NCBI RefSeq assembly: GCF_964204645.1
Contig: NC_134030.1
Coordinates: 16,182,110-16,246,109 of the forward strand
Source of the DNA: Tubulanus polymorphus
Taxonomy: Eukaryota; Animalia; Nemertea
DNA length: 64,000 bases
Direction: 5' to 3'
Position numbers and translations under genes: made by a program. Within the stretch, counting starts at the first letter, position 1; each line of letters starts with the position of its first letter. The notes beneath the pieces were generated by a model. That model had not been told where the DNA came from and did not search any database. It saw nothing but the letters and a program-made list of their open reading frames with translations. Below, in pieces: positions 8,508 through 32,973 of the stretch.

Positions 8508-8525
8508 ATAAGAAATAAAAATAAT

Positions 8526-8657: not shown

Positions 8658-9026
8658 TTAATCCATTTTTTTTATTATTAATTTTGGAATTTCAGAAGTA
8701 CTTTCATTTTTGATAGCAGTTGGTTCAGAATTACTAATATCATGAATTTTATTTGATTTCTTATACCAATTACACCCAATCAAAATAAATACAATTACAA
8801 ATCCAACTGTAAAATATAAATATTTATCAAATATTCTACTATCAGAAGGAGTAGAAATAACAATATTTTCACCATTTTTATTAACATTTTTATTACTTAT
8901 TTTTTCTTTTACAGCTTTTTTATATTCTTGTGATTTAATTCCTAATTGTCGAGACCATTCAATTTGTTTCTGAGTTCTCGGTTTTTTCTTCACAGTTAAT
9001 TCCTTCACTTCTTTCACCTCGCTCAT
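8658..9026 (-). CDS. Small basic protein with one TM helix
   Basis: Intact ORF conserved in B, 0 and D. Confidence 0.75.
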   Translation of the reverse strand: MSEVKEVKELTVKKKPRTQKQIEWSRQLGIKSQEYKKAVKEKISNKNVNKNGENIVISTPSDSRIFDKYLYFTVGFVIVFILIGCNWYKKSNKIHDISNSEPTAIKNESTSEIPKLIIKKMD

Positions 9027-9564
9027 TTATTATAGAAATATTTTTACTTTCAATATTTGAAAATGTTATAACTCCAGTTGATAATAATGTCATAAATCCA
9101 CCTAATTGAAATGATAAATATCCAATCCATTTATTTAATTCAGTCATAACTAAATAATCATTTTTTAAATCGGAATATAATCTATTTTCATTTTCAATTG
9201 GTAGTATATAATTACATAATTTACTATAACCCTTTACTACATTTTCTGATATCGCGTCATTAATTCTAGCTGTTCTCGCGGCTTCATAAATTTTAAATAA
9301 TCTAATAATTTCATCTGATTTCATTGTATCTAGTTCATTATAAGTTAAATTTTTACTAACAAAATTTTTACATTTTCCAGATGCTATTAATATTTCTAAT
9401 TGATGTTTACAATAAAGATAATATTCATAATTATTATTTGTTGTAACATTATTTAAAGCACCATCATCTGGAATTAATTTGTTTTCTGTTATTCCTAAAT
9501 CATCTAAAGTTTTTTCAATTGGAACATCACCATTTTTAGATTTTATTTTCTTTTCACCCCCCAT
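8959..9564 (-). CDS. Conserved Polinton hypothetical protein (201 aa)
   Basis: Intact; ATAAATG start; homologues in the other elements. Confidence 0.75.
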   Translation of the reverse strand: MGGEKKIKSKNGDVPIEKTLDDLGITENKLIPDDGALNNVTTNNNYEYYLYCKHQLEILIASGKCKNFVSKNLTYNELDTMKSDEIIRLFKIYEAARTARINDAISENVVKGYSKLCNYILPIENENRLYSDLKNDYLVMTELNKWIGYLSFQLGGFMTLLSTGVITFSNIESKNISIINERGERSEGINCEEKTENSETN

Positions 9565-9594
9565 TTATATAACAAATAAATTAGTTGTGTTGTT

Positions 9595-9868
9595 GCAACT
9601 AGAATTCAACTAGAATGTAACTAGAATTCAACTAGATTAACAAGCTAGTTGAAATATTGTTGTTTTTGTTTATTTCTTGTTAAATCTAGTTGATTTTTGT
9701 TCCAACTACTAACAACTAGAATTCAACTAGAATGTAACTAAAAATATACTAGATTAACAAGCTTGTTAAAATATTGTTAAATCTATTTGATTTTTGTTCC
9801 AACTACTAATAACTAGAATTCAACAAGAATGTAACTAGAATTCAACTAGATTAACAAGCCAGTTGAAT
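9595..9868. repeat. Intergenic array of ~11-bp AACTAGAAT(TC/GT) repeats with inverted CTAGTTGA copies
   Basis: Directly visible; orthologous array at 32722-32970. Confidence 0.8.
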
Positions 9869-10477
9869 TTAAATAAATTCATATTTAAATGGGTGTTGTA
9901 ATCTAAATAGTAATTTTGATCTTTTAATATTTTTCAACTTATCCATATATTCATTATGTAAATCATGTGGAATAATATCATTTTCCTCAAGTGCATTTTT
10001 CATCGATTTTCTATCTTTATTGTAGAATAAAACTAGAAATCTAATGTTTTCTCTAAAATCTTTAACAATTGAATTATATTTTTGATTTAAAACCCAAGTT
10101 GTTATCCCAAAATGTCTTCCAGAGAAAGCCAAATAACATAACTCACTTTCTCTAACTTTTGAATCATGTAGATTAACACAATCATCTATGATAAATAATG
10201 TATTTGATCCTTTATAAATATCAATTGCTATTTTTATACAATTATCTAAATTTTCTTTTACTGTTTTAGGATCTAATATAATAAATTTATTATTCCTAGT
10301 AATATTTTTATCATAAGTTTGATTAAATTCATATGTTGGACAAAATAATACTATATTATCAAAATAGTTTTCATAAACAGTTTCTAATAAATTTAATATA
10401 AAATAAGTTTTTCCACAATTTGTTACACCAGAAATTAACATATTATGAGGCTCAAATATGAATAATTCCTTATTCAT
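9869..10477 (-). CDS. A32-like genome packaging ATPase
   Basis: GVTNCGKT Walker A, FIIDD Walker B, GRHFGITTWVLNQ. Confidence 0.92.
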   Translation of the reverse strand: MNKELFIFEPHNMLISGVTNCGKTYFILNLLETVYENYFDNIVLFCPTYEFNQTYDKNITRNNKFIILDPKTVKENLDNCIKIAIDIYKGSNTLFIIDDCVNLHDSKVRESELCYLAFSGRHFGITTWVLNQKYNSIVKDFRENIRFLVLFYNKDRKSMKNALEENDIIPHDLHNEYMDKLKNIKRSKLLFRLQHPFKYEFI

Positions 10478-11628
10478 TTATATATTTTTAATTTTACTTG
10501 ATAATATCCATTCATTAAATTTATCTGGCCATCCAACCCATTTTACTAAAGAATATTTTTTTCTTTTAACAGTTTTTGTTTTTAGTACTTTTTCAATTTT
10601 ATATTCTTGTTCTAGATTTTCAGTAGTTAAACTTAATTCTTCTTCATAAAAATATCCATCAACTTCTTCACCATCTAAATCTTCTAATTTATAGACATAT
10701 GGTTTTGTTGTTATTACCTTTTTTATTTTATATATTTCTCTAGTAAAATTTCGATCGTATCCTTTATCAAATATCTTTTTATACTTAGAAATTCTAACAT
10801 TTTGACCAACTTTAAATTTAGGTTCACCAAAATCATCTACAAGAAATGCTCCATATAAATTATTCCAAACAATTACAGCATTTTCAGATTTGCTAGCATC
10901 AATAGGTTTCATTCCAATAGAAGAATGATAAGAATTATTATATCCTTCTATCAATTTTGGTAAAACATCAATCCATTTAAAAGTATTATTTGCTGTAAAA
11001 TATTTCCACATTCTTGTTCTTAATGTTCTATTAAATCGTTCAACAACTGCTGCTTTTTTATCTGATTTTGTTGAAAAATATTTAATATTATGATTATCTA
11101 AGAGTTCATGAACAAGTGAATTATCAAATTCTTTTCCATCATCAAATTGAATTTTTTCTGGTTTTAGTTTACCACCTGAAAGAAATTTTCTTAAAACATG
11201 TGATGTTTGTGCAGCATCTTTTCTATAAAGTGGGAAACTCCATACATAACGACTAAAAATATCAATTATATTCAATAACCACCAATAATCATCATTATCT
11301 TTCTTAACATTTTTCATATCAATTAAATCTCCTTGCCACTGTTGATCTACATAACTTACCATAGTTTTACGAGTTTTATATTTTCTAACAATTTTTTTAT
11401 GTGTTGTATGTTGGTTGTTCTAACATAAATTCATTTATATCTTTATATTTAACTAAATTTTGTGGGATTATCTTATCTAATTTATCTTGTTTTACTTTAC
11501 GCCATATATTTTTAGTAGAAGAATAAGCAACCGAACTCTCAGGGTTGTAATATAAATTTCTTAAATATTGTTCTTTAGTATTAGGAGTATACTCTAGTTT
11601 AGTATTTAGGAGTTTTTTTACAACCCAT
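10478..11628 (-). pseudogene. DDE integrase with chromodomain; core ORF 10478-11362 intact, N-terminus frameshifted
   Basis: WQGDLID, QFDDGKEF, VERFNRTL; chromodomain YKIEKVL..LVKWVGWPDKFNEWI; upstream KEQYLRNLYYNPES and TAAATG at 11628 are not in one continuous frame. Confidence 0.88.
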
Positions 11629-11658
11629 TTATATATCCTTAATTTTAACTTTATATTT

Positions 11659-12906
11659 CTAATATTGAATACTATCTAATTGTGAATTTATAATATTTAA
11701 TTGCGCATCAGATAATATATAAATATGCATTTCAAAATTTTTGATTCCCTTTTTCTTTTTCATAAATAATTGGATCCCATCTTTTGTATTTTGTAATTTT
11801 TTCCCAGAACCATGTAATAAGTTATCTTCAGTTGTTCTAAAATCTACCCATAATGCAAATTTATTACCGGTATAATAATCAATTTGATTAATGTTACAAT
11901 TTTCAAATGATTTTACTTTTTCATTCATAAAATGTTTTTTAATTTCTACCCATTGATCTATCATTCTCATTCCTTGACAAAATATTTTATTTGCTATTCC
12001 TTCGATAGTTATTTCTACTTTTGTTATTTCAGGATTATAATAATTGTCAAAATTTATTGCGCCATTAGTATACGTTCCAATAGTAAAAAATATTAATATA
12101 CCTTTAATAGATCTTCTTGGGAAGTTAATATTCTCATTAATAATTTCATCATTTGCATTAATAGTTACAGTTTTAAATTTATCAATATAATCATATAATA
12201 ATGAAAATCCTTGATTGTATTGAGTTTGAATTATACTTGAAATATTTTCATCAGTTACTGTATCATATTCTAAACATATATTCGATAATTTATAACTCAT
12301 ATCTTTAACAACGCTAGATAATACAATTTCATTTACAGGAGCAAATGTTATCTCAAATATAATATCTTCTTGAATTGCGTATTTATATAAAGGTGCATTA
12401 TTATTTATCAATTCAAAGTCTAATGGAATTTTATATTTGCTTCCATATATACTTTTTATCAATTTATCTACATCATTTGTTAATATTGCGCTATTAGCTT
12501 CTGATCTTAATTTATTTTGGTTTTCTGATTGGATGCCTTGAAATATCATATTATTTCTATTTTCTTTATTTAACCATAAATCTTTATAATGCATAAATAA
12601 ATTATAATCATCTAATGAGAAAACTGTTTCTGGACCAATCTTTATTGTTAATTTTTTAATCAAATATCTTCCAACATTATCAACGACATAATTATTATTA
12701 TTACCGATTACTTTTATATCAGCTGATAAATAAATACTGTTTGGAACATAAAAAGTATTTTGTGTTAATCGAGGGATTCTAACATATAAAGTTTCATCGG
12801 GATTAATATTTGAAGGGTAATGAGTAATTATATGATGTGATCTTTCTGCTTTAATAGCATTAGATATTCTATGATTCTTAGAAGGATTGATATAACTCCC
12901 ACTCAT
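11659..12906 (-). CDS. Major capsid protein (double jelly-roll)
   Basis: 415 aa, beta-rich, LSNICLEYD and WVDFRT motifs resembling Polinton MCPs; most conserved gene across both families. Confidence 0.82.
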   Translation of the reverse strand: MSGSYINPSKNHRISNAIKAERSHHIITHYPSNINPDETLYVRIPRLTQNTFYVPNSIYLSADIKVIGNNNNYVVDNVGRYLIKKLTIKIGPETVFSLDDYNLFMHYKDLWLNKENRNNMIFQGIQSENQNKLRSEANSAILTNDVDKLIKSIYGSKYKIPLDFELINNNAPLYKYAIQEDIIFEITFAPVNEIVLSSVVKDMSYKLSNICLEYDTVTDENISSIIQTQYNQGFSLLYDYIDKFKTVTINANDEIINENINFPRRSIKGILIFFTIGTYTNGAINFDNYYNPEITKVEITIEGIANKIFCQGMRMIDQWVEIKKHFMNEKVKSFENCNINQIDYYTGNKFALWVDFRTTEDNLLHGSGKKLQNTKDGIQLFMKKKKGIKNFEMHIYILSDAQLNIINSQLDSIQY

Positions 12907-12949
12907 TTATTTAACAAAAAAATTAATTATTTATTTTTGATATCATGGT

Positions 12950-14395
12950 TTACTTGATATTTTTTGATATCATATTCACTAAACCAAAAATAATAGCACT
13001 TACAACTGTAATTAAAAATAAAATAATATGTTCAGCAGCAAAGTTAAGAATATTACCTGCAGATTTCAATATAAAACCAACAATTGAAGCAATAACTCCT
13101 GGTAATGCTGCAGCAGATTTTTTAGATAGTTCCCATAAATATTTTGCTAATTTCTTTAAACCATCCTTAACTTTATCTTGTATAGAATTATTGCCTGGAG
13201 GTTTATCTGGTTTATTGGGAGTGGGAGTAGGAGTAGATTTTAAAGCATTTGATATAGCTAAACCTATTGTTGTAAATACCATAGTTACAGATGTTAGAAT
13301 TGAAAGAATTGTTATTCCTTCTAACTTAAATAATAATTTTATTCTGTCTTTTAATGATATTTTAGAATTTGGTTTTATCAACAAATCTTTAAAAATAACT
13401 TTTAATCTATTAATATTATAATCATATGATTTTAATAATGTATCTCTTTCTTCTTTTTGTAATTCTTTGTTATATTTTAAATCATCTATTTCTTTTTCTA
13501 AACGTAATTCTTTTTGTTTATATTCTATTTCATCAATTACTTGATGATCTAAATCAGACTTTAATTGTTCTATTTCTTTATTTTTATCAGTTAATTCTTT
13601 TTCTAAAGTTCTAATTTTAAAATCTCTTATACTTTTATTATGTGCAATTTTATCAGCTTCATTTCTTATACTAATAATTTCTCTAATTGCTTCATCAGAA
13701 AATATATTTAAATCTTCTAATTGTTGATTTGTTGCATCAAGTAATCCATTTGGTAAAAGTTTATCAGTTTGAACTTCGCTTGAATTAGGTCTACTAGTTT
13801 TGGAAGTTTTATCTTCTTTAGGAATTGTTTCTGGTTCTAAATTTTCATTAATTATCTTCAAAAAATCATTATTTCTTCGATTAAATTCTTTTATATTATC
13901 ATCTCTTTCTTCTTGTGTAACATCAGTTATAACATCATCAATGATTTTCTTAATTCTAGATTGTTCTAATTTAATAAAAGTTGATTTTGTTATTATTTTA
14001 TCAAGACTTTTATTAGAAGAAATCTTAAAATAATAGTCATTTTTCAAATGCCAATAATAATCACCATTTAAATATTTCAAATCTTTTACTAAATAATTCA
14101 CACCTTTATTTGTTATATTGAATCCAGATTTTTCTAATATTGGTTTGAATTTATCAGTTAATTCGTCATATTCTAGTTCTTTTTTCATTAAATCTGGATT
14201 TTCATTTTCAATGTCCAATCTTGAACGTGCTTTATTAACATATTCATTAGTATCAGGTCTTGTTAAATTAGAATTATATGCTGTTTCATTACCATCATTA
14301 AAACTTGTTTCATCAAAATCAGGTGGTTGTTCATCAGTTATACCAGGTTCATCAAAAGGATCCATTCCAATATCTTCACCACCTTCTACTTCCAT
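12950..14395 (-). CDS. Acidic N-terminus/coiled-coil protein with C-terminal amphipathic and TM helices (putative membrane-active virion protein)
   Basis: 481-aa intact ORF; AAALPGVIASIVGFILK..AEH C-terminal block conserved in elements 0, A and B. Confidence 0.75.
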   Translation of the reverse strand: MEVEGGEDIGMDPFDEPGITDEQPPDFDETSFNDGNETAYNSNLTRPDTNEYVNKARSRLDIENENPDLMKKELEYDELTDKFKPILEKSGFNITNKGVNYLVKDLKYLNGDYYWHLKNDYYFKISSNKSLDKIITKSTFIKLEQSRIKKIIDDVITDVTQEERDDNIKEFNRRNNDFLKIINENLEPETIPKEDKTSKTSRPNSSEVQTDKLLPNGLLDATNQQLEDLNIFSDEAIREIISIRNEADKIAHNKSIRDFKIRTLEKELTDKNKEIEQLKSDLDHQVIDEIEYKQKELRLEKEIDDLKYNKELQKEERDTLLKSYDYNINRLKVIFKDLLIKPNSKISLKDRIKLLFKLEGITILSILTSVTMVFTTIGLAISNALKSTPTPTPNKPDKPPGNNSIQDKVKDGLKKLAKYLWELSKKSAAALPGVIASIVGFILKSAGNILNFAAEHIILFLITVVSAIIFGLVNMISKNIK

Positions 14396-14411
14396 TTATA
14401 TAATAAAAAAA

Positions 14412-15557
14412 TTAAAATTTAAAATATAATATTCCTCCGATTACAGTTCCTATACAAGTTATAGCTAATTTAGTATTTTCATGGGATTTATTATCATCAT
14501 TTAGTTTAATTATATCATGTTGAATATTATCAGTTTTTATATCTTCTGATGTATTGTAATCTTTTATTTTAGAATCATTATTTAATTTAATATTCTTAGT
14601 TTTAGTTTCTGTTGATTGAATGTGTTTTTTATTTTTTTCACCTTCCATTAATTTTGGAGCAGTAATAATCTTTTTATTTATATTATTTAACCCAAATGAA
14701 TTATTTATTGTTGCAGTTTTAATTAGATTATTATAACCAATTATATTTCCCATCTTCAATACTAAATCATTAGAAATAATTAATAGATTAGGGCCTATAC
14801 AATAATTAAGTCTTACATGAGATTTATCTAAATAATTTTGATATCTTATAATGTTTTCTGGAATCGATCTATTTTTATCATTATGTATGGAATCTTCAAA
14901 TAAAACTTTAAACTGTTTCTGCGCATCGAATGAAGTGTTATCATTTCCAATTATTGGGGATCTTGTTTCAACTTGAGCGCCTAAAATACATATCAAATAA
15001 ATTCTAATAGATTGATTTATTCTTTGTATACCTGATTTTGTAAAACCTTCACCATTTTCTAAAATGAAATTAACCCAACCATTATTATTATCAATTTTAT
15101 AATTATGATAAGCTGAAATTCTATGCATATAATCAATTCTTTTTTTTTCATACTCTTCACCAACACCTTGCAATTTACCATGCGCTCTAAAATCGGAATT
15201 AATATTTATATTAAATTCATTACATATTTTATAAAACTTGGATATATTAATATTATTATCCAATTCTTTAAAATATTTAGACCCGGGTAAAGGACATTCT
15301 AATTCATTTAATATTATTCTGATTTGAAAATATGTGTGAAATCTAAATATTGTGTGAATTAATTTTAAATCAGAATACTTCAAATTTTTATCTAAGTTAT
15401 TTAAATGATCATTCCAACTAATTCCACATCCTGTTGTTGCACAATAAACAGCAAAATTTAATTGATTCTGCCAATATTTCATATTAGATTTTACTTTATA
15501 TATATGATATTCATCTTGAGTAAAAGTAACTTCATATGTATTAAATATATTTTCCAT
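14412..15557 (-). CDS. Conserved Polinton hypothetical protein (QLNFAVYCATTGCGIS motif), C-terminal TM
   Basis: 381-aa ORF; homologous fragments in B and D. Confidence 0.75.
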   Translation of the reverse strand: MENIFNTYEVTFTQDEYHIYKVKSNMKYWQNQLNFAVYCATTGCGISWNDHLNNLDKNLKYSDLKLIHTIFRFHTYFQIRIILNELECPLPGSKYFKELDNNINISKFYKICNEFNININSDFRAHGKLQGVGEEYEKKRIDYMHRISAYHNYKIDNNNGWVNFILENGEGFTKSGIQRINQSIRIYLICILGAQVETRSPIIGNDNTSFDAQKQFKVLFEDSIHNDKNRSIPENIIRYQNYLDKSHVRLNYCIGPNLLIISNDLVLKMGNIIGYNNLIKTATINNSFGLNNINKKIITAPKLMEGEKNKKHIQSTETKTKNIKLNNDSKIKDYNTSEDIKTDNIQHDIIKLNDDNKSHENTKLAITCIGTVIGGILYFKF

Positions 15558-15712
15558 TTTAGAAATAAAAACTGTGATTCATTAACATAAATTTCTAAAT
15601 TAGTTAATGAATTTAAAACTACATTTTTATATGTAATATTTTTCTTAAAATCTATTGCCGGAATATTATATTTAATTGATTTATTATATTGGAAAGCTTT
15701 TGGAAACCCCAT
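15491..15712 (-). CDS. 73-aa ORF; possibly the frameshifted N-terminus of 14412-15557
   Basis: Has the ATAAATG start that the overlapping 381-aa ORF lacks. Confidence 0.5.
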   Translation of the reverse strand: MGFPKAFQYNKSIKYNIPAIDFKKNITYKNVVLNSLTNLEIYVNESQFLFLKWKIYLIHMKLLLLKMNIIYIK

Positions 15713-15728
15713 TTATATAACTAAAAAA

Positions 15729-16163
15729 TTAATAATTTATTAATTCTTTTAATAATTTATCTTGTTCTTCAACTGTTATATGACCATTTAAACTTATTAT
15801 ATAATCTAGTGTGTTCTTTAATTTATTTATTTCTTTTATATTAGTTTTGATTTTTTCTTTATTACTTTTTATATTTAATTTTGAACTTATACCAGTTAAA
15901 ACACTTGAACTTAATCCTAATACACCAATTGATATAGCTAAAGGTGCTAATGGGCTGAATATTGCTAGAAATGTTATTACAGAACTAATTGTAACCGAAC
16001 CACTTATAATAAAATAATATATAATTTTACTTTTTAAATATTTTTTCTTTTTTATCTTTAAGTCACTTTCAAATTCTAATATTTGTTTTTCTAAATATGT
16101 TTTTAATTTAGTTTTATTTATATCATGAGGAATAATATCAATACTATCAACTTTATCTTCCAT
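15729..16163 (-). CDS. Two-TM coiled-coil protein (144 aa)
   Basis: Two hydrophobic helices; ATAAATG start. Confidence 0.7.
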   Translation of the reverse strand: MEDKVDSIDIIPHDINKTKLKTYLEKQILEFESDLKIKKKKYLKSKIIYYFIISGSVTISSVITFLAIFSPLAPLAISIGVLGLSSSVLTGISSKLNIKSNKEKIKTNIKEINKLKNTLDYIISLNGHITVEEQDKLLKELINY

Positions 16164-16182
16164 TTATTTAGAATAAAAATTA

Positions 16183-16605
16183 TTAATTAGTAAACTTATA
16201 AGCAACAAATATAACAATAACTGTTCCACCTAAAATCCATATTATTTCATATTTCTGTTGTTCTTTACTTGGGGTATAATAATCTGATAATTTAGGTTTG
16301 TATAGATGTAATTTTTCTTTATTGGTTACTGTGTTATATAAACTCATTGCATCATCAACTGATTGAAAATCTCTATGTGAAATCTTCTGATCATATAATT
16401 CTTTATTGATGTAATCCATATAGTTTTGTCTCTTTTCTCTATATTCTTCTGCAGCTTTATTGTATTTCTCTAACGCTAAATTATGTCTTCTTTGTTCTCC
16501 TAATGAACTATTTTTATCAATATGTTTAAATAAATAACCACCACCAGTAAATGCTAAAGCGTTAACAATTGCTGATCCTATAATAGTTATAATTGCAGAA
16601 GCCAT
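16183..16605 (-). CDS. Conserved 140-aa protein with hydrophobic termini
   Basis: NALAFTGGGYLF..RHNLALE; one residue different in B. Confidence 0.75.
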   Translation of the reverse strand: MASAIITIIGSAIVNALAFTGGGYLFKHIDKNSSLGEQRRHNLALEKYNKAAEEYREKRQNYMDYINKELYDQKISHRDFQSVDDAMSLYNTVTNKEKLHLYKPKLSDYYTPSKEQQKYEIIWILGGTVIVIFVAYKFTN

Positions 16606-16630
16606 TTATTTAGCAAAAAAAATTATGTAT

Positions 16631-16852
16631 TTATATGGGAGGAATATATTTTTGTTTTTCCAAATAATCAATAGTTAAATTAGATAAAGTAACCGCTAAT
16701 GTTAACTTTAAAATATCATTTATATCAAATCTATCAACATTAACACTTCCCATTTTGAATACTTTTTTTAATACCATTGAATAACCAACAGTTCCAACTG
16801 ATAGTAATGCGCCATTATATAATCCAGTTATTATCCACTTATTATCACTCAT
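16631..16852 (-). CDS. 73-aa small membrane protein
   Basis: Identical in B; TAAATG start. Confidence 0.7.
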   Translation of the reverse strand: MSDNKWIITGLYNGALLSVGTVGYSMVLKKVFKMGSVNVDRFDINDILKLTLAVTLSNLTIDYLEKQKYIPPI

Positions 16853-17212
16853 TTATTTATCAAAAAAATTACTATCTTCAAAATATTTAGTTAACTTAGT
16901 GATGATTATTTCAACATTTATTTCATTACTAGTTTTATGATTATCATATATTTCAATTATTATTTTTTTAATATCATCGATGATAAAATCTTCATCTAAT
17001 TTATAAAATCTTAAAGATTCTCTAATTAAATTAGTAATCTTTTCTACATTTAAAGTTTCTTTACCTATTGTTGTTTCATACTCAAATGTTGTTTCATTAG
17101 AAAATACAACATTTTTGATATGTGTAATTACATCATTCATGTTAAATTTCATTTCTTTCTCACGTTTAAAATCAAATCCAAAACATATACTCGGTCCAAC
17201 AGTTATATTCAT
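16853..17212 (-). CDS. Hypothetical protein (119 aa)
   Basis: Conserved in B; stop abuts next start as TAAATG. Confidence 0.7.
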   Translation of the reverse strand: MNITVGPSICFGFDFKREKEMKFNMNDVITHIKNVVFSNETTFEYETTIGKETLNVEKITNLIRESLRFYKLDEDFIIDDIKKIIIEIYDNHKTSNEINVEIIITKLTKYFEDSNFFDK

Positions 17213-17228
17213 TTATATAGGTGAAAAA

Positions 17229-18026
17229 TTACTCTTTACATCTTATAACTAATTCATAAATTACAGGAAAGTTATTCAAATCAATTAAATAACCATTATG
17301 ATTTCTTATTTCTAATTTAAAATTATTGAAATGTGGAATACAAGGTTTAAAATCACATTCAGCTAAATTATAATTTATTTGCGTTCCAAATTGTTTAACA
17401 TTTTTTAATGGTAAAATGTTTAGTAAACCAGAATTACAAATTGTATCTTTAGTTGCTTCAAAAGTTTTTGTAGGATCGATTAAATTACAATAAATATAAA
17501 AGTGTGTAAAAGGTATTATATTTGAGTTACCATGTTTGTTTCCACCAAATTGATTTGGAGTTATTCCTAATAGTTTAGCTATAGGTTTTTTTACTGTGTA
17601 AGTATGTCTTCTTGTCATCAATGGATTAGATTTATCAAGTTTAATAAGTTCATCATCAAGCTTTATTTTAATTTCATTAGAGCTCTCACTTTTTATGAAT
17701 TTAATATTAAATTTAGAATTACCATTACCTAATCTAATCCGAGCTTTTCTATTAATTTCTTGCTCTAATGTTTCTAAATCATATAATCCTGGTGTAAGCA
17801 TAAGTTGAATCCATTTTTTTTCAAGTTTATCAAAAATAAGAAGGCTTCTATGTTCATCAGTTTTATCTGATATATTATAAAAAGAATTACATAAACTTAT
17901 ATTTACTAATTTTAAATCTACACAATTCTTAAATTCTCTATCTAATTGTACTAATAAATTATGAGATTTATAATTTATAAGTTTTCTAGAATCAACAAAT
18001 ATTCTGTATTCTTTTAATTCTACCAT
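17229..18026 (-). CDS. Minor capsid protein (penton, single jelly-roll)
   Basis: VDSR N-terminus, PGLY, YIYCNLI, and EIRNHNGYLIDLNN C-terminal motif resembling Polinton/NCLDV pentons. Confidence 0.72.
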   Translation of the reverse strand: MVELKEYRIFVDSRKLINYKSHNLLVQLDREFKNCVDLKLVNISLCNSFYNISDKTDEHRSLLIFDKLEKKWIQLMLTPGLYDLETLEQEINRKARIRLGNGNSKFNIKFIKSESSNEIKIKLDDELIKLDKSNPLMTRRHTYTVKKPIAKLLGITPNQFGGNKHGNSNIIPFTHFYIYCNLIDPTKTFEATKDTICNSGLLNILPLKNVKQFGTQINYNLAECDFKPCIPHFNNFKLEIRNHNGYLIDLNNFPVIYELVIRCKE

Positions 18027-18094
18027 TATTTATAACATAAAAAAATTACCGCTCATCATTAAAAATTAATTTTAATAAAATTTTTCCTAAATAA

Positions 18095-19392
18095 ATGGAT
18101 GAGAAGATAGCATGTGAAATTTGTGGTGAACTTCTAAGAAAAAGTAATAAGGCTCGACATATGAAAAAACATGATGAAAATTATAAACCCCCTAAAATAA
18201 ACTGCCCAAAATGTAATAAATTATTCTCAAGAAATTATGTTAAAAAACATTCGGAGAAGTGTAGAATTAATGGCGCAACGGCTAATGTTGATAGTAATTC
18301 TGCTGAAGTTGAACCTGAAGTTATTTGGAAAAGACCTTTCTTATTCTATGATAAGGATAATATAAAAGATCATTTCTGTGAGCCTTGTCGAATGAAATAT
18401 AACCCTGAAAATATAGAAGATTGGGAGAATCATCAATTTCGTAAAGCACATATAGATAAAATTTCTAATAAATATGAAACTGAATTTAATGAAAGAAAAG
18501 ATAATTTATTAGAAAAAATAAAATATGAGAAAACGTTACCAGATAATGAAGAAACAGTTGAAAAGTTAGAAAAACAATATAATGAATTAACAAGAAAAAC
18601 ATATTATTGTAAATATTGTAAATTGATTATTACAACAAGTAATTCAAATCTACATAATAGAACAATAAAACATAAAGAAAACGTAAGAAAATACCAAGAG
18701 CTTAATGAAGATCTATTACCAATAAATTATAAACAAAAATGCCCACAATGTAGTTATGCGACCTTAAGGCAAGAAGGTACTGTGTTATTTTGTGTTGATT
18801 GTGGATGGCAAAAGAATTTATGGGGTGAAGAAAAAACTAGAGATTTTCTCATAGATCCAAAATTAAATTATCTTGATGAAATTTTTAAAATATTTTCTAT
18901 AGAAGATCATACACCAGAATATATGCAATGGCTTGAAAAAATGAAAATAATAGAAAATGAAAATGGTGAAATAACTAAAAAGATATTATAAAAACAATTA
19001 TTCCACCAACATTTAACACAAAACAAAAAATGTATTTATATTTATTATTTAACGATTATTATGAAAAACCTAAATTAACAGAAGAAGATATGAAAAATAT
19101 AAAAAAAATATTCAAACAAATATTAATGTATCATTTGGAAAATAGAATAACAGATTCAATAAATTATGAATTCTTTTTAAATAAGATTGTAAATTATTTA
19201 AACCTAGATATTATAATTCCATTTGATGAATTAACAAACAAAAAGAAACAAAGAGAGCGAGATGAAATGTGGAACAAGATAGAACTTTATTTAAATGAGA
19301 AAAATGGAATGGAAGAAGAACCTGAACAATTAAATGAAAATGAAGAAGCCAATAATGATTTCGAGTATGATGATATTGATTTTATGTTTTAA
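18095..19392 (+). pseudogene. Multi-Zn-finger protein (one gene frameshifted at ~18980)
   Basis: C2H2 and C4 motifs; element B has one extra A that joins the two ORFs in frame. Confidence 0.75.
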
Positions 19393-22300
19393 TGGCCATA
19401 AGGTAATGTTTTTATACCATCATCTAAAATATGCCTTTTATCATCAAATGGATTTAAACTATTTTTTTCAACTTCATTAATGTACATCTCATGATCTTCT
19501 GATCTTAAACAATTCATTTTGTGTTTCATTACAATTGATTTATATAAACACTTTATATAATCTTGAAATTCTATATGTTTATCAACCACATGTTTTGTTA
19601 TTCCTTTTAACTTTTTAGCTTCATGATCTTTTGTTCTGTAACTATACATTTTACTTCTTATCCCAACAAATTCAATCATTTCATCACCTCCTAATTCATC
19701 TTTAAATTTACCAGGAATCTTTTTATTATCATTGCTAAATAGTTCATGATCTTTGGGATAATTGCTAAAATCAAAATGATGTTTTAATGTTTTTAAGTCT
19801 TTTGTTATATCATTTGTCTTGATTTTTAGTATGTACGCATCAGTATTGACCGCTATTAATGGAAATCCACAGTTAAATGTACCATCTTCAGTTGATAAAT
19901 CATAAACATAATCTGTTGGGTTATATATTTCAAATAAATCTTTAACTTCTTCAGTTAACTCATTTTCTACATGGCTTGAATTAAAGCAATTTGGTTTAGA
20001 TTTAATCAATCCAATATTCATATTAAAACCTAATGAATTGCATAATATATTTAATCCTGATATAGCAACTTTTCCCTTTTGAGCTAAAGATATTGTTTTG
20101 CGGTTTTTGAAACTTTTTGAACCATCTGCAGCATAGAACCCAATGAAGAACCATTTTCTTAAATTATTTTTTGCATTTAATACATAATCTGGAACTATCT
20201 TTTCTTTTGTTGAAGTATTACTTTTCACTATTGCATGAATATAGAATTCATCATTATATTTTGTAGCAAAATCTTTAGGATTATTCACATGTATTCTATA
20301 ACATTGCGATGATTTCATAACATCTATGATTTTGAATGTTTTATTTGGATAAACTTCTTCACAGAATTTCTTAATTCTTTCTAATAATTTTAAGTCTTGA
20401 TTGCATAAATACCAACAATATTTATTACCCCAAACATATTTATACACACCTGCTGAACCATCACCCATGAAAAATCCTTTGATAAAATATTCTTTTTCTT
20501 CTAATGTTTCGGGTTCTATATTATAAATATTATTAATTATTTCATCAAATGACATATGATTCATTCTTGGGAAAAATCTTTTATGTAATAATTCATCTCC
20601 AATTTTTATATCAGTTGGTTTTATTTCATCACCATTTCGTTTAATTAAACTATGATCTTCTGTAACATCTACAAATCCTAATTTAGTTCTAACTCTATAG
20701 ATTTTCTTATTTGTTTTATGCCTAATAATATTCTTTAATTTTTTCCATCCATTTCTCGTCCAAACATCCATTAAACCATTTATTTGTATTAGTTCTTTTT
20801 CACCATACGAAATATAAGATTTATTTTGATTAGGAATTATTTCTGAAATTCTTCTAATTAATTCTAATAATATTGGGGTGTCAGATGTAACAGAATCGAA
20901 GTATAATATTTCAATATGCTTTTCCCCAAAAAGTGGTTGCAAAACATTATAATAAAAATCATACATTAATAATTTTGAAACTTCTAAAACAGTTGAACCT
21001 ATAAATATTGGTTTATTAAATTTCATGGACGTTCTTTTTAATTTTACCGCGGTTAAATAATCTTCAAACCTTTTATTTCCTAAATGTCTGGGACTTGATT
21101 GTAAATGTCTTAATCGTTCAGAATTATTTACTAATTCAATATCATTTCTATTTCTAATATTTTCACATGTTTTACCATAAAAACTATTATTCATTAATTT
21201 GAAGAAATCTTTTTCAAAATCTGTTTTTGATATTGTTCTCTGTTGAGTATTGAAATCTATATATTTTTCTAACCACTTCGATTGATTAAATTCAATATAT
21301 CTATGTACTTTCTTTAATTTCATTCCTTGTTTTAGATAAAATTTTAACATTCTATAATGAACAATATAATTGTATTTATTATTTTGAGTAAGTATTAATT
21401 TTTCTGTAAAAACATGATCTTTCGGTTTTATTTTCTTCTGGTATTCACTTAAATAACTATCATCTACAGTTAAATGTTCTGGGCAATAAGGTAAGTTTCT
21501 TGTTTTAAACTTTATATTTTCAGGATATTCTAAATCAACTACAAAGAAATAACCAATTGGTGCTTCATCTTTTAAACTAATAATTGCGCTTTCCCAATCA
21601 GTTTTATCACCATTTTCAACTTCTGTTAATATAAAATTTTTATATGGTTGAGGTTGCATCATTGCCCAACCATATAAATTATTGATATAATTAAATATAT
21701 AATAATTTATATTCACCATTTGCTTTAAAATACCTATCTCCCATAACACCACTAATTCCACCTCTAATTGATTTTTCAAATAATAAAACCATATCTGGTT
21801 CTTTTACTAAATCTAATTCTACATTTGTATATTTTAAACCACATTGCCAGGTTAAACCAGGACTAGAGTAGCAATAACAAGGATCAACATTAAAATGATT
21901 CAAATTAACTTCTCTAAATTTTTCAAATATGTCAGCCAATATCATAACATCTGATTTTAAATATAAATCAACTAATTCGCCATGATTTTTCATCTTAAAA
22001 TGGTTCCAAATATTTAATGTTCTATTAAACACTTCGTCTTTCACATACTCCTCTTTTAATTTATCATAAAATTGATCTTTTAATAATTCTATTACATTAA
22101 AATCATCATGTGTTTTATAAAATGAATAAGGAATTGCGCCTTTATATCTCAATAATTTAAAATCTTGTTCATTTGGATAATAATATCGAGTTATAATAAA
22201 ATCATTATCAACTAAACTTTTTGATAAATTATCTAATGAACTTGCTAGAAATCTATAAGAATCTAAAAATCTAATGCAACCAAATTGAAATGAAATATAA

Positions 22301-24444
22301 TTTTCAGATGTTTTAGCTAATAGTTTAAAATCATATTTTCTTACATTTGCTTCATTCATAGCATTATATTCTTCTATTTCTTGATTAATTGCACCCAATT
22401 TTCCTGATAATTGTTTTATAAATAGATGGGTATCATATCCTGATAAATTATGAAATAATATTGGTCCAAAATTTACTTTTTTAGCTTGTAAATTGCAATC
22501 TTCATGAGCAGCTCCACGATATTTTGAATTTAAATGATCATGATCTCTAACTCTTTTATCAAATGAATAAAAACGTTTTTCACAATAACAACAATGAGTT
22601 GCATAATTAAAATCAATTTCATCTTCTTTTGTCATAACTATTCTTTTATTTTTGTTTAATAATTTTACAAAATCACTTTCTAATTCAATAATTTTATCAC
22701 AAAAATCATTAACTACATTTTCACCTCTAAAAGAAATATATTGACTTTCATATAATTCGGGATAATTTGATTTTATATAAATTCCATAAGCAGCAGCTCT
22801 TTGATGAACTTTTTTAATTGTATTTATAATTGGTGGGTCTTGAATTATATCTTCATTTAATTCACTTCCTTTATCCATTGATTTTAATAATTGTTTTTTG
22901 TTATATATTTCTTTTCTATCTTGATCAGTTAATTCTTTATTCAACGATTCAAAATCCCCATAAATTACAAATGGAACAATATTTTTAAATTTATGATTAG
23001 TAAATTTCAATTTATAATCTTTTTCTGTTGGCATTATTAATCTACAAAAATCTTTATTATCACATAATTCTTTATGTTTTAGTAACGCATTCTCAGTTCT
23101 AAATTTAGATAAACATTTTCTACATAGATAAATTTTATGGTTGTTAAAATCACTTTCTGTTCTAAAGAATAAATCAATTTGTTTTAACCACATATAATGT
23201 TCATTTTCATCTTTTTTGTAATATAACAAATCTATAGTATTTTCATCATCATAATATTCTGTTAAATATAAAGCTTCCAATGTATAATCTTTAATATTTT
23301 CACCTTTTGTCTTTGGTAATTGCATTAATTCGAATACATTTATTTTTAAATTATTAACTTTTTCTATTTTAGGAATCATTTTTATAGTTACTGGATATTG
23401 ATCAATTTTATATAATGTTTCATATTTCCGATAATCTGTTATTCTACAAACATTTTCCTGTGATGGATGTAAGCAACTAATAATTGCCCACAGAAAACAT
23501 TTGTTGTCTTCATTTTTAACATTTATAATTGCTTTTGATAAAAATGGTAATTTAATATAACTTGATGCTTTCATATCTTTTTCTATTACAAAGTTTGAAT
23601 TATTTTTAAACATTTTATTACTTTTTGATGTTTTATTTCTTTTTGTATTATAAACATTTAAATCTAAATATATAATTTCATTCAATGTTAAACCAGAACC
23701 CTCAAAATATCTTTCTTCAATATGACGTTTAAATTCATTTAATATTTTTTCTAACTTCTCTTTTATTTGTGTTTTTGAAATTATTTTTTCAGAGAGTGTT
23801 TGAATATTATAATTCATTTTTTCTTCTGACTTTATAAAACTTACTTTCCCAGAGATACTAATTTTTGGATATTCAACATCTGTTATCAAATCTAGTATTT
23901 TTTCTATTATTTCATTAAATTTACTATAATCTTCTATTGTTGTACCTTTAAAAAATCTAAATATAATAGCTGCAGGACCAATTTTACTATGTAATGTTTC
24001 TAAGATTTCAATTGTATCTTTTATTTCTAATGAATCAATATAATTTCTAACATTTTCCATGTAAGGTTTATTTGAAATGGATTTTGTTTTTGAAGTTGAT
24101 TCTTTTACTTGTTGAGGTTTATTATCAAAATAATCTTTTCCTAAAACATTATTACTCAAATTTTGATGGTGTTTTTGTGATTCGAGATGTCTATTATAAT
24201 TCCTTTTTACTATAAATTCATTACAAACTTCACATTTTATTTCATCCACATTCATATTTTCTAATCGTTCTTTTCTTTCATTAGAATTTTCTGGAGTTTC
24301 AAAATCTATTACATTTTTTATATGATTTGCAGTTTTTTCATGTCGTGTTTTATTAGATGTATCGATGTATTTTTTACAATATTGACAATAATATTGATTT
24401 TTATTGACATTATTGTTTTCTAGTTGGTGTTCATTCTCCCCCAT
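19389..24444 (-). pseudogene. polB: Protein-primed family B DNA polymerase with intein; motif A disrupted by a frameshift at ~21690
   Basis: N-terminal Zn fingers, OTU-like KCFLWAI..HY, ExoI YGDFES, endonuclease-VII-like RDHDH..CN, HNLSGYD, KLMNNSFYGK, YFD/TD; IDANNLY replaced by filler sequence. Confidence 0.93.
19845..20894 (-). mobile_element. Full-length intein (350 aa) with LAGLIDADG homing endonuclease in pPolB motif C
   Basis: In-frame 1050-nt insertion between YFD and TD, absent from element B; Ser1 SVTSDTPILL, block B VTEDH, FIKGFFMGDGS and FFIGFYAADGS, block F VYDLST, terminal Asn followed by Thr+1. Confidence 0.95.
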
Positions 24445-24560
24445 TTATTAGGAAAAAAAATTACTTGTGGTGATGAGTAGGAAAAAAAAAATTACTTGTG
24501 GTGATGAGTGGTGTCTCGTCCTCTCGTCCTCTGATCTGAAAACGCCATCTTCTAATTACT
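24440..24560 (-). repeat. Right TIR of element A
   Basis: Inverted copy of 8067-8185; includes the pPolB start codon. Confidence 0.93.
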
Positions 24561-29178: not shown

Positions 29179-29438
29179 AGTAATTGGAAAAGTAGGCTTT
29201 CAGATCAGAGGGCGAGAGGGCGAGACACCACTCATCACCACAAGTAATTTTTTTCCCTAATAAATGGGGAAGAATGAACACCAACTAGAAAACAATAATG
29301 TCAATAAAAATCAATATTATTGTCCATATTGTAAAAAATACATCGATAAACCTTACATGGAAAATGTTAGAAATTATATTGATTCACTAGAAATAAAAGA
29401 TACAATTGAAATTTTAGAAATATTACGTAGTAAAATTG
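29179..29438 (+). repeat. Extended left TIR of B, including an internally deleted inverted copy of the pPolB 5' end
   Basis: Matches 44436-~44268 and then ~43980-43890 in reverse complement. Confidence 0.85.
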
Positions 29439-29602
29439 TGACACACATAAACAGTGAGTGCGCGTAACAACAGCTGCGTGTGTGTTAACTGTATCTGGAT
29501 AAATAGAGTGAGGCTTGGGTGAGAACAGTTAATAGCGTGTTTGTTATATACAAGGGGAAGTAATCCCCACTCATCACCACAAGTAATTTGTTTTCCTTAT
29601 AA

Positions 29603-29929
29603 ATGGGAGATAGAAAAGCATTCTTAGCAACAATAAATAACAGAATAAAACCAGCAAAAAAACAATTTGAAATAAAAAAGTTAGTTGATGTTACAAAAGA
29701 AATTGAACATAAAATATTGAAATTAGAAAAGATAAAAACTAAATATGGAGAGAAAGTATCAGCTAATTTAAGCTATTGTAATGTTAGTACATCGCGAGAA
29801 TTTAAAGTGTTTTTACCTGATAAATGGGTTTCATTGAGTATGGAGGAATTGAAAGATTTAGTAGGATTTAAAATAATATATCATGGGAAAAATGAAGACG
29901 GTCATCATGATTTAGAAATTGTTGATTAA
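29603..29929 (+). CDS. ORF108 conserved hypothetical protein
   Basis: Protein identical to 8181-8507. Confidence 0.75.
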   Translation: MGDRKAFLATINNRIKPAKKQFEIKKLVDVTKEIEHKILKLEKIKTKYGEKVSANLSYCNVSTSREFKVFLPDKWVSLSMEELKDLVGFKIIYHGKNEDGHHDLEIVD

Positions 29930-29970
29930 ATAAAAAATAAAAATAATGAATATCTAGAATCCAAAATGAC

Positions 29971-30608
29971 CTTAGTCGTTTTATAAACAACTATAATCAT
30001 ACAGTACATCTGTTACATATTATTATAAGAGAGTGCTTCATTTGAATATTGATCAATCAAACAGGTGTTGCACAACGTTGTTGTTATATAATAAGCACGC
30101 AGTACATACAACACACACAAGCCAGTTAGCTGGTATTGAATTACTACGTTTTCATTAGTTGCTGAAAACGAGGTTTATTTAAATTAGCTCAGCCGTGACG
30201 ACAGGAGGATAGTCATCATTCTCTCGTGATTAAAAGGAATATTTCAATGTTTTTACGGTAAGTTTTAGCAAAACCACCCGACTTGACTCGCAGAGTTTTT
30301 AGGGGATAAGCATCCCGTTATTGAGAGGCGCCACGAGATACCTATCCCCAAGCATTTCTACTTACACCCCTGTGACCCACACCTCACCAATTCTCCTTCA
30401 ATGGTTGACAGGAAACACATTATATTAAAGGCGCCTAATGCATTTCCTATCAACCCCTTACCCCCGAAAGGAGGATCGAAAGTCGAAACTGAAGGAGAAC
30501 CACGGAGGGTGGACAAAGGTGCATTTTCGAAATGCCCCTGCAAGCCAAGCCCGGCGGCACTCCAGTGGTTGAATGAATTGCCTTATATACTTAGCTAAAA
30601 CACCTAAG
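29971..30608. mobile_element. Unclassified non-viral insertion with short imperfect terminal inverted repeats
   Basis: Higher GC; absent from A; CTTAGTCGTTTTA...TAAAACACCTAAG; no TSD found. Confidence 0.4.
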
Positions 30609-30827
30609 TAAATGTTGTTGGTGCTAAAAAAAATATGTGAAATTTGAAATTATAAATTATTCCGAATGAAAAGAATGTAAGAATGAAAACTGATAAATGA
30701 ATTATGTATTTTTAACTTCATTATGATATAATTTTTAATCAAATTAGTAATCAATTACTATGTTAATTGATTAACAAATTCAAATTCAAATATTCAAATA
30801 AAAACAAAATAAATTAATAAAAATAAT

Positions 30828-30904
30828 GAATATCTAGAATCCGAAATGACTTATCTGGACAATTTAATTGCTCCACAGTGATAGACAAAAGTAGTGAGAT
30901 ATTC
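30828..30904 (+). ncRNA. Candidate conserved structured element (B, upstream of HNH)
   Basis: Near-identical to 8526-8602. Confidence 0.4.
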
Positions 30905-31010
30905 AATTATTTTTTGTTTTTTTTCTAAAATATTAATCCATTTGTTGGTCGAAGAAATGGAAGAGGATTATAAATTATTAACCAATTTAGTAAAAAAATA
31001 CGTATAATAA

Positions 31011-31685
31011 ATGGAACTAGAACAACCACAAACTATCAATATTACAAATAACACTGGTGTTATAAACATATACTACAAGAAGTGTTCTAAATGTGAATTA
31101 GATAAATCATTTACAGAATTTAGTAAGCGTAAGACTAGCAAAGATGGTTTTCAATATTGTTGTAAAACTTGTACTAAACTATATACCAAACAATATCGAG
31201 AAGATAATATAGAACATTATAATTATTATATGGCAGAATATATGAGAGAAAGATATCAAACAGATCTTAATTTTAGATTGAAACAATGCTTAAGGTCTAG
31301 ATTAACACAATTATTCAACAAAGAAACACATTCAGAAACACTATCTAATCTATTGGGTTGTTCAGATGAATTTCTCAAATCATGGATTATATTTCAATTC
31401 GATGATAAAATGAATATAGATAATTATGGGGATTATTACCACATTGATCATGTGTTACCAATATCTAAATTTAACATGAATGATGAATACAATAAAAAAC
31501 TTATTTGGAATTGGAAAAATTTAAGACCTTTAGAAAAGAAAGAAAATCAAATCAAATCTAATAAACTAGATTTACAGTTATATTCAGAACAGTTAACAAA
31601 GGCAAAGAAATTTATTGATCAATGGAACAATAATCCAAATAATGAACGATACGTTGAGGAATTTGTTATCAAGGATCCGAAATGA
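31011..31685 (+). CDS. HNH endonuclease with N-terminal C4 Zn ribbon
   Basis: CSKC..CKTC; HIDHVLPISKF..WKNLRPL..EN..KSN; intact; absent from element A. Confidence 0.85.
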   Translation: MELEQPQTINITNNTGVINIYYKKCSKCELDKSFTEFSKRKTSKDGFQYCCKTCTKLYTKQYREDNIEHYNYYMAEYMRERYQTDLNFRLKQCLRSRLTQLFNKETHSETLSNLLGCSDEFLKSWIIFQFDDKMNIDNYGDYYHIDHVLPISKFNMNDEYNKKLIWNWKNLRPLEKKENQIKSNKLDLQLYSEQLTKAKKFIDQWNNNPNNERYVEEFVIKDPK

Positions 31686-31751
31686 CTTATCTGGACAATT
31701 TAATTGCTCCGCATAGATGGTGCCATAAACGGCACCCACATGGTGATATTC
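31665..31751 (+). ncRNA. Candidate structured element overlapping the HNH stop codon (variant 3' half with GGTGCC/GGCACC hairpin)
   Basis: Same core; the HNH TGA lies inside CCGAAATGAC. Confidence 0.4.
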
Positions 31752-32151
31752 AATTATTTTTTTTTGCTTTTTTTCTAAAATATTTATCCATTTTTTTTAT
31801 TATCAATTTTGGAATTTCAGAAGTACTTTCATTTTTGATAGCAGTTGGTTCAGAATTACTAATATCATGAATTTTATTTGATTTCTTATACCAATTACAC
31901 CCAATCAAAATGAATACAATTACAAATCCAACTGTAAAATATAAATATTTATCAAATATTCTACTATCAGAAGGAGTAGAAATAACAATATTTTCACCAT
32001 TTTTATTAACATTTTTATTACTTATTTTTTCTTTTACAGCTTTTTTATATTCTTGTGATTTAATTCCTAATTGTCGAGACCATTCAATTTGTTTCTGAGT
32101 TCTCGGTTTTTTCTTCACAGTTAATTCCTTCACTTCTTTCACCTCGCTCAT
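31750..32151 (-). CDS. Small basic TM protein
   Basis: Orthologue of 8658-9026 with read-through extension. Confidence 0.7.
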   Translation of the reverse strand: MSEVKEVKELTVKKKPRTQKQIEWSRQLGIKSQEYKKAVKEKISNKNVNKNGENIVISTPSDSRIFDKYLYFTVGFVIVFILIGCNWYKKSNKIHDISNSEPTAIKNESTSEIPKLIIKKMDKYFRKKAKKNN

Positions 32152-32689
32152 TTATTATAGAAATATTTTTACTTTCAATATTTGAAAATGTTATAACTCC
32201 AGTTGATAATAATGTCATAAATCCACCTAATTGAAATGATAAATATCCAATCCATTTATTTAATTCAGTCATAACTAAATAGTCATTTTTTAAATCGGAA
32301 TATAATCTATTTTCATTTTCAATTGGTAGTATATAATTACATAATTTACTATAACCTTTTACTACATTTTCTGATATCGCGTCATTAATTCTAGCTGTTC
32401 TCGCGGCTTCATAAATCTTAAATAATCTAATAATTTTATCTGATTTCATTGTGTCTAATTCATTATAAGTTAAATTTTTACCGACAAAATTTTTACATTT
32501 TTCAGATGCTATTAATATTTCTAATTGATGTTTACAATAAAGATAATATTCATAATTATTATTTGTTGTAACATTATTTAAAGCACCATCATCTGGAGTT
32601 AATTTTGTTTCTGTTATTCCTAAATCATCTAAAGTTTTTTCAATTGGAACATCACCATTTTTAGATTTTATTTTCTTTTCACCTACCAT
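32084..32689 (-). CDS. Conserved Polinton hypothetical protein (201 aa)
   Basis: Orthologue of 8959-9564. Confidence 0.75.
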   Translation of the reverse strand: MVGEKKIKSKNGDVPIEKTLDDLGITETKLTPDDGALNNVTTNNNYEYYLYCKHQLEILIASEKCKNFVGKNLTYNELDTMKSDKIIRLFKIYEAARTARINDAISENVVKGYSKLCNYILPIENENRLYSDLKNDYLVMTELNKWIGYLSFQLGGFMTLLSTGVITFSNIESKNISIINERGERSEGINCEEKTENSETN

Positions 32690-32721
32690 TTATATAACAA
32701 AAAAATTAATTGTGTGATGTT

Positions 32722-32970
32722 GTAACTAGAATTTAACTAGAATGTAACTAGAATTCAACTAGATTAACAAGCTAGTTGAAATATTGTTGTTTTTGTTTAT
32801 TTCTTGTTAAATCTAGTTGATTTTTGTTTCAACTACTAACAACTAGAATTCAACTAGAATTTAACTAGAATTAGACTAGATTGACAAGCTAGTTAAAATA
32901 TTGTTAAATCTATTTGATTTTTGTTACAACTACCAATAACTAGAATTCAACTAGATTAACAAACTAATTG
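32722..32970. repeat. AACTAGAAT repeat array
   Basis: Orthologous to 9595-9868 with a different copy number. Confidence 0.75.
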
Positions 32971-32973
32971 AAT

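Follow-up and report, generated by a model that had tools for sequence, protein, structure and literature searches.

An insertion of 350 amino acids splits catalytic motif C of a Polinton DNA polymerase in the genome of the nemertean Tubulanus polymorphus. From its residues and predicted fold we read it as a full-length class 1 LAGLIDADG intein, carried by the protein-primed PolB (pPolB) of a multicopy integrated Polinton. The intein is predicted to splice and is likely to have spread by homing into empty alleles; we regard this combined reading as probable. The window, the whole stretch of 64,000 nt that was analysed, holds the intein-bearing element A and an intein-free sister, element B (Table 1).

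Table 1. Features of the window, with position, strand and basis or remark.
Feature	Position	Strand	Basis or remark
Polinton element A	8067..24560	.	Inverted termini; 6-bp target-site duplication at 8061-8066 and 24561-24566
A32-type packaging ATPase, element A (PF04665)	9869..10477	-	Profile match
rve integrase with chromodomain, element A (PF00665)	10478..11362	-	Profile match
Double jelly-roll major capsid protein, candidate only	11659..12906	-	Feature score
VLTF3-like gene (Pox_VLTF3)	19030..19392	+	Element A, beside polymerase; E=5e-7, above cut-off
Protein-primed PolB gene of element A, two ORFs	19389..24444	-	Frameshift near 21700 splits gene
First 9 nt after intein	19836..19844	-	4 A/B differences, +3 residue included
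Class 1 intein (Hint + LAGLIDADG), 350 aa	19845..20894	-	Polymerase motif C of element A, pol-c site
C-terminal splicing region: block F Asp332, Val349 (penultimate), Asn350, then Thr+1	19845..19952	-	
LAGLIDADG homing endonuclease domain: Asp145, Lys232, Asp257	19965..20549	-	Borders approximate, from model
N-terminal splicing region: Ser1, block B Thr78/His81	20580..20894	-	Profile, alignment
Divergent tract upstream of intein, candidate co-conversion tract	20895..21234	-	32 A/B differences in 340 nt
Polinton element B, sister of A	29179..44436	.	6-bp target-site duplication at 29173-29178 and 44437-44442
Intein-free pPolB of element B (PF03175)	40512..44351	-	Stops early
Empty intein insertion site, element B	40808..40809	-	A/B alignment
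Host ACE (peptidase M2) exon	54848..54970	-	AG and GT borders; end approximate

Anatomy and fold of the intein

The insertion can be translated over 350 codons with no stop; it starts with Ser1, ends with Asn350 and joins ...EILYFD to TDAYIL of polymerase motif C in frame, as the initial annotation had reported. The same annotation listed the residues of an intein (Ser1, TxxH, two LAGLIDADG motifs, block F Asp, Asn and Thr+1), and each of them was located in the sequence. Block B reads Thr78-x-x-His81, and the LAGLIDADG-type acidic residues are Asp145 and Asp257. In an alignment of 59 relatives, no change occurs at Thr78, His81, Asp145, Asp332 or Asn350, and at least 90% of the sequences keep Ser1, Lys232 and Asp257. 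According to the residue scheme in the available text of PMC4031507, a class 1 intein has Ser or Cys at position 1, a terminal Asn, and Ser, Thr or Cys at +1. By this scheme the insert is a class 1 intein, since Ser1, Asn350 and Thr+1 fit it.

Profile scans agreed with the Hint and LAGLIDADG reading. LAGLIDADG_3 (PF14528, E=1.2e-6) and TIGR01445 matched above their cut-offs, and Pfam Intein_splicing matched with E=1e-6 and 29.1 bits, under its curated cut-off of 35.8. Among PDB sequences, the best match is the intein endonuclease PI-PkoII. An AlphaFold model built from the 59-sequence alignment had a pLDDT of 93.4. When this model was used to search PDB structures, TliVMA (E=3e-17), PhoVMA, PI-PkoII and PI-SceI came first, and I-DmoI came after these whole endonuclease-bearing inteins. 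The predicted model contains what characterizes a homing endonuclease, namely two LAGLIDADG helices with acidic residues, the conserved Lys and an I-DmoI-like fold.

Within the DTD of motif C, the insertion falls after the first Asp and before the Thr, at the site named pol-c. Archaeal and viral loci are interrupted at the same position. In our searches, this motif is split by 62 inteins in viral loci and by 46 in loci labelled as prokaryotic, the majority of which are archaeal, and these support the identity of the site.

The two Polintons and their surroundings

Terminal inverted repeats and a 6-bp target-site duplication are hallmarks of Polintons, also called Mavericks. Both elements have inverted termini (in A the first mismatch comes after 77 nt), and the 6-bp duplications are exact in both. 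Together with a protein-primed PolB (PF03175, element B), an rve integrase and a packaging ATPase, these features place the intein in an integrated Polinton, as first proposed. The candidate capsid protein scored 0.98 by features against capsid clusters of Preplasmiviricota; its recognition stayed under the threshold of the tool, and it had no match in Pfam, PHROGs, PDB sequences or viral contigs. No protease family appeared in a profile scan of 16 ORFs; an adenain-type protease is common, not universal, in Polintons. The VLTF3-like late transcription factor gene is of a type held in common with large DNA viruses, and a VLTF3-like protein is known in adintoviruses (available text of PMC8502044).

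Several genes of element B have decayed. Its polymerase ends at a premature stop at 40512, which is absent from about 98% of the reads of run X5. The raw reads of this run come from a different study that carries the same species label, and about 12% of them were read.

Several other features of the window were recorded. Element A is inserted in a decayed copy of an HNH-like ORF (6961-7168 and 24557-24897) that is intact in B (31011-31685), and an 868-nt insertion adjoins this decayed ORF. The unoccupied form of the target is frequent in reads, so that the target is itself a repeat. Two more partial Polinton relatives, one of them inverted, lie at 1-6145 and 55987-64000 and are about 75-92% identical to A and B. 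There are four related elements in 64 kb, and one is apparently upstream within or beside the ACE gene. A 28-nt unit within the termini (8086-8147, 24444-24510, 44359-44386) occurs as a tandem pair in A and once in B, and reads vary likewise in its copy number. Between A and B lies a tandem array of more than 20 copies of a 31-nt unit (25509-26284), and at 26300-28100 there are Myb/SANT-type transposon protein fragments, presumably Harbinger-like by resemblance.

Condition of the copy in element A

The frameshift in the polymerase of element A falls in the motif A region, upstream of the intein, and because of it this copy is probably not expressed as a whole precursor. In two parts of its splicing domain the intein itself is unlike its relatives. 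Its penultimate residue is Val, found in only one of the 86 inteins compared, and its N-terminal region lacks about 5 residues that relatives and another copy of the species possess. It also lacks both assisting histidines, at the block F and penultimate positions. An assisting His at one or the other is common in inteins, not universal. About 53 of the 85 other inteins lack both as well, by an approximate block F pattern. By the same pattern, inteins without both carry Lys (47), Ser (5), Ile (1) or Phe (1), a sum of 54; the majority of viral relatives lack both, with Lys instead. The intein had been called complete, and this stands for its full length and its intact core residues; as a copy it lies behind a frameshift and has the two splicing-domain departures.

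These observations leave a real, if minor, chance that the intein is genuine and the copies of its family are dead, with activities lost after integration and copy number raised by Polinton amplification alone. The frameshift in A, the truncation of the polymerase in B and the two unusual places in the splicing domain would all be expected of dead copies. Against this, the 350-codon frame is open with its core residues intact, and the lack of both histidines is shared with the majority of other inteins just counted. In addition, full-length intein-bearing polymerase ORFs occur in the related families P0005, P0007 and P0014.

A weak endonuclease VII (His-Me) match lies inside the polymerase at about 22486-22620 of the window (polymerase residues 609-653). 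It is also seen in P0007, P0014, P0137 and P0145, as a second nuclease-like insert in this polymerase class.

The empty site and the divergent tract

As the initial annotation claimed, element B is empty at this site. Its polymerase is continuous at motif C, reading ...EILYFDTDSYIL without interruption, and the empty site falls between 40809 and 40808. A and B are 94-98% identical on either side of the insert, and their alignment breaks exactly at it.

Upstream of the intein, the 32 differences of the divergent tract, a window picked after inspection of the data, are followed by none at all over the next 450 nt (341 to 790 nt upstream of the site). The codon changes in the tract are 26 synonymous and 5 non-synonymous, compared with 14 synonymous and 22 non-synonymous in the 913 codons of the N-terminal polymerase blocks. 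This synonymous excess rules out decay as the source of the tract, which therefore comes from a diverged, selected lineage. The sharp change from 32 differences to 0 fits the prediction of homing co-conversion, for which the tract is a candidate. A and B are mosaic elsewhere too, with up to 10 differences in other 80-nt windows. At the listed tract sites the read majorities of run X5 match the letter of A at four and that of B at four, so the tract cannot be polarised from the reads.

Among polymerase relatives, the four closest (73-87% identity) have no intein, and at -13 and +3 their residues are those of B. The +3 residue of A is the same as in the intein-bearing relative P0160. On these grounds a gain of the intein in the lineage of A is favoured.

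Occurrence among other polymerases

Relatives were surveyed by word-index searches. Searching with the intein gave 348 longer matches. Among the 120 listed, nine of the top 11 are Polinton-type polymerases with the same intein at the same site (41-62% identity), and most of the remaining listed matches are PF00136 polymerases. The flanks match the polymerase of element B in 16 of 41 near-length intein matches. Conversely, among the 120 listed relatives of this polymerase one is filled, 114 are empty and five are unclear. On the extein tree intein occupancy needs 5 changes; the tree has 29 of 38 picked rows (9 were without the pattern), and intein-bearing rows were added deliberately, so the 5 changes are not a frequency.

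In the P0007 cluster (15 of 136 members listed), the intein-bearing reference was compared over 80 residues around the site: six empty members depart from it at 13-20 of them and six filled members at 1-3, and two more of the listed members lack sequence there. Three versions of the site occur among the empty members. This second, unrelated cluster repeats the divergence between empty and filled polymerases near the site. The P0010 cluster has one empty member with flanks identical to those of filled members. Three empty polymerases (P0131, P0133 and P0302) have Cys for the Thr of motif C, a candidate homing-resistant version of the site.

Related inteins also occur in the non-polymerase hosts P0011, P0042 and P0106. 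Type II topoisomerase domains are among these hosts, as is PF03747, which we take to be the ADP-ribosylglycohydrolase family. Their insertion sites end in Asp before Thr-Asp, and this sequence context suggests spread to look-alike sites. Among the other Polinton intein hosts, only P0013 has a label, a lucinid-clam symbiont bin; its 2.5-kb contig is probably mis-binned host DNA.

A single-protein scan of viral contigs gave 21 stretches and no confirmed relatives, and one of metagenomes gave two distant loci. In an alignment scan of part of the viral contig collection, the best identity was 40% among the best 80 of 537 matches, and the 62 inteins from these 80 have giant-virus-type flanks.

Phylogeny and origin of the intein

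The 12 Polinton inteins form one clade among 86 inteins in a quick tree (SH-aLRT 100). The initial annotation had linked the intein to inteins of NCLDV polymerases. In a tree rooted on archaeal pol-c inteins (40 rows, LG+G4), the Polinton clade is nested inside giant-virus-type PolB inteins, with supports of 93/99 and 85/92. This tree omits 18 of 58 rows, the long-branch L091 among them, and a 58-row quick tree agrees with it on the placement. Identity to giant-virus inteins is 35-44%, compared with about 25% to archaeal ones. The Polinton inteins sit near a viral group that shares their C-terminal GFPL-type motif. According to the supplement of PMC8575486, the five viral loci of this group that were found among six looked up are Imitervirales (four IM_01 and one IM_07).

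In an AU test, a position of the Polinton inteins as sister to all viral inteins was not rejected (p=0.079). Kinship with giant-virus PolB inteins is supported by these trees. A virus-to-Polinton direction is likely but unproven, since the sister position was not rejected. Of the NCLDV origin, then, the grouping was recovered and the direction of transfer is favoured. The giant-virus-type, intein-bearing PolB genes L083-L088 and L091 sit in bins labelled as bacteria or archaea, and are likely to be mis-binned viral contigs.

The polymerase of P0009 has no significant BLASTP match to that of B, and its intein groups with that of the window (95/92, on a long branch). Judged from these sequences, the intein has probably jumped between two polymerase classes. 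Leaving P0009 aside, the branching of intein-bearing Polintons is the same whether inteins or exteins are compared, which fits either homing among kin or old residence with losses.

It is accordingly conceivable, and to us improbable, that the intein is an old vertical resident. Element B would then have taken an intein-free tract from a relative, by loss or escape, and homing would be minor today. Besides the agreeing trees, this account draws on the third-position GC of the intein (0.149, and 0.126 in the polymerase), a similarity expected of long residence in AT-rich elements. Most run X5 copies match A at four tract sites, and the three site versions among empty members of the P0007 family are what repeated replacement of the site would give. 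The distribution of the intein argues the other way: the four nearest outgroup polymerases are empty and carry the residues of B beside the site, and only one of the 120 listed relatives is filled. Endonuclease residues are also conserved across the intein clade, and in the homing-cycle model such conservation is expected to need repeated homing. We keep to a gain by homing as the better reading.

Copy number and probable location in the animal chromosome

Both elements are on the same contig as spliced ACE exons and are found in the same runs. The best matches of the ACE exon are to human ACE (E=6e-17, single-domain entries). A second ACE-like exon, assigned by resemblance, presumably lies at 47100..47342 on the minus strand (lower end approximate), with an intron of about 7.5 kb between the two. 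The DNA beyond element B is host DNA of about 35% GC. As the exon with its AG and GT borders is on the same contig beyond element B, the host is an animal, in agreement with the original claim. Directly outside element B, at 44745-45400, is a very high-copy host repeat with a depth of about 3500-3900 in run X5.

The depth in run X5 was 194-207 over the intein and 295-324 over the upstream polymerase (90% cut), and 4.8-8.2 around the ACE exon (88% cut). These figures suggest about 25-40 intein copies per ACE copy, with about two-thirds of polymerase copies filled; they are rough, as the ACE baseline is thin and reads on conserved genes may be dropped. From the terminus of B, 619 reads of run X5 exit into unlike flanks (agreement 0.35), as expected from many integration sites. 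The region is present in four runs of one study, one of which may be the source of the sequence. The N-terminal intein junction is crossed by a contig that reaches 34 letters into the intein, and run X1 contains both the intein and the ACE region with 0 differences over 827 nt. No read or contig record of the searched runs reaches from the intein to the ACE exons.

At 25-40 times the ACE depth in reads of another study, the intein is a multicopy resident of the species and no product of a chimera. The annotation had spoken of an intein entering an animal chromosome beside an empty allele; a single one-off invasion is contradicted by this multicopy presence and by the diversified clade of Polinton-specific inteins. 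We give very little weight to an assembly chimera, or to contamination from a symbiont or free virus, in which case the intein would be outside the animal chromosome. Such an origin could draw on the missing long record between element A and the ACE exons, on a contig over the end of B with 28 letters inside the element, below the 31-letter rule, and on the high depth that a free virus could in principle give. The exact duplications at both elements, the junction contig, the match of run X1 and, in a second study, the divergent multicopy reads and the many unlike flanks at the terminus oppose it.

The chance is slighter still that the insert is a non-splicing Hint module (Hedgehog-like or BIL-like) or a stable nuclease domain; nuclease insertions of the HNH and VSR kind are known in Polinton pPolB (available text of PMC10748475), while this insert splits the catalytic motif, has both splice junctions and an internal LAGLIDADG domain, and its predicted fold matches whole inteins.

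Proposed mechanism and meaning

We infer splicing, cleavage and the route of spread from these observations. The intein would be translated within the polymerase and splice out by the Ser1, Thr+1 and Asn350 route, which would restore the catalytic motif. Its endonuclease would cut the empty motif-C DNA of another Polinton genome that shares the cell. With the intein-bearing copy as the template for repair, the intein and some flanking DNA would then pass into the cut copy. Homing may take place in replicating genomes or between integrated copies. The Polinton intein clade may go back to a single transfer, during co-infection, from the PolB inteins of Nucleocytoviricota. Later the intein would have passed from one Polinton lineage to another, and in at least one case the polymerases involved would belong to two deeply different classes.

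Several observations count against this explanation. In the intein these are the missing assisting histidines, the rare Val, the short N-terminal region and the sub-cut-off Pfam score. In the comparisons they are the mosaicism of A and B elsewhere, the choice of the tract window after inspection, the evenly split read majorities, the agreement of intein and extein trees, the AU value and the gap between intein and ACE exons in the read and contig records.

More tentatively, the endonuclease may be homing now between integrated Polintons in the animal nucleus, a natural drive by which about two-thirds of the family would have been filled. Empty copies would persist through an altered, cut-resistant motif C, and the giant-virus ancestry would record co-infection of animal cells by Polintons and a large DNA virus. 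We think this extended version possible but rather unlikely.

Passages of PMC5784728 state that inteins are absent from metazoan genomes, and the available text of PMC8529194 describes these genomes as intein-free. In contrast to these reviews, the present intein is found in animal DNA at tens of copies; its carrier is an endogenous viral gene and not a host gene. Protein-primed polymerases of Polintons are thereby a new class of intein host. As homing requires that donor and recipient DNA meet in one cell, the ancestry of the intein marks contact between Polintons and giant viruses and among Polintons. This record of contact is relevant to the question of a virophage-like nature of animal Polintons. 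Because alleles with and without the intein coexist in one genome, splicing, cleavage and resistance are open to testing.

Comparison with known systems

Full-text searches of open-access papers turned up no intein described from a Polinton polymerase and none from an animal chromosome. The available texts of PMC12220804, PMC5718144, PMC13768754, PMC3671162 and PMC11296320 contain nothing on either. The words intein, LAGLIDADG, Hint and homing do not occur in the main text of PMC10748475. Its HNH and VSR insertions are like the Polinton intein in placing an endonuclease domain within a Polinton polymerase. One speculative sentence in the text seen of PMC11071308 attributes the nuclease insertions in pPolB to intein invasions. 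For those insertions that text reports no Hint domain or LAGLIDADG, unlike the intein of element A, which supplies direct anatomy for the link hinted at there in passing.

Element A resembles the Polintons/Mavericks (adintoviruses) in the available text of PMC8502044 in its pPolB, rve integrase, A32 ATPase and VLTF3-like gene, and also in its inverted termini and 6-bp duplication, with the candidate capsid gene as a further possible likeness. The main text of that paper is without the terms intein, homing endonuclease and LAGLIDADG.

Inteins in viral-like DNA polymerases on nuclear scaffolds are described for Klebsormidium nitens, Tetrabaena socialis and the labyrinthulomycete H. fermentalgiana (available text of PMC10710043). 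As with the Polinton intein, entry to a eukaryotic nuclear genome was within an endogenous viral polymerase. Those hosts are non-animal, whereas the carrier here is a multicopy integrating element with adjacent filled and empty alleles. The words polinton, metazoa and animal are absent from the main text of that paper.

Archaeal PolB pol-c inteins (Thermococcus, Methanocaldococcus, Nanoarchaeota and others) split the same motif with the same Hint and LAGLIDADG architecture. They differ in their lower identity, in a length of 380-400 aa and in forming a long separate branch. Nucleocytoviricota pol-c inteins are closer. They resemble the Polinton intein in site, in their Ser1...Asn|Thr ends and in sequence identity, and one subgroup shares its GFPL-type motif. 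The nearest giant-virus pol-c inteins are those of Imitervirales MAGs (IM_01, IM_07) and the matches in phycodnavirus, Pandoravirus, Marseillevirus and Megavirus polymerases. The hosts are nevertheless of different kinds: an RNA-primed PolB (PF00136) in Nucleocytoviricota, and here a protein-primed PolB of the PF03175 type in a 16-kb integrating Polinton, whose inteins form a clade of their own apart from those of giant viruses.
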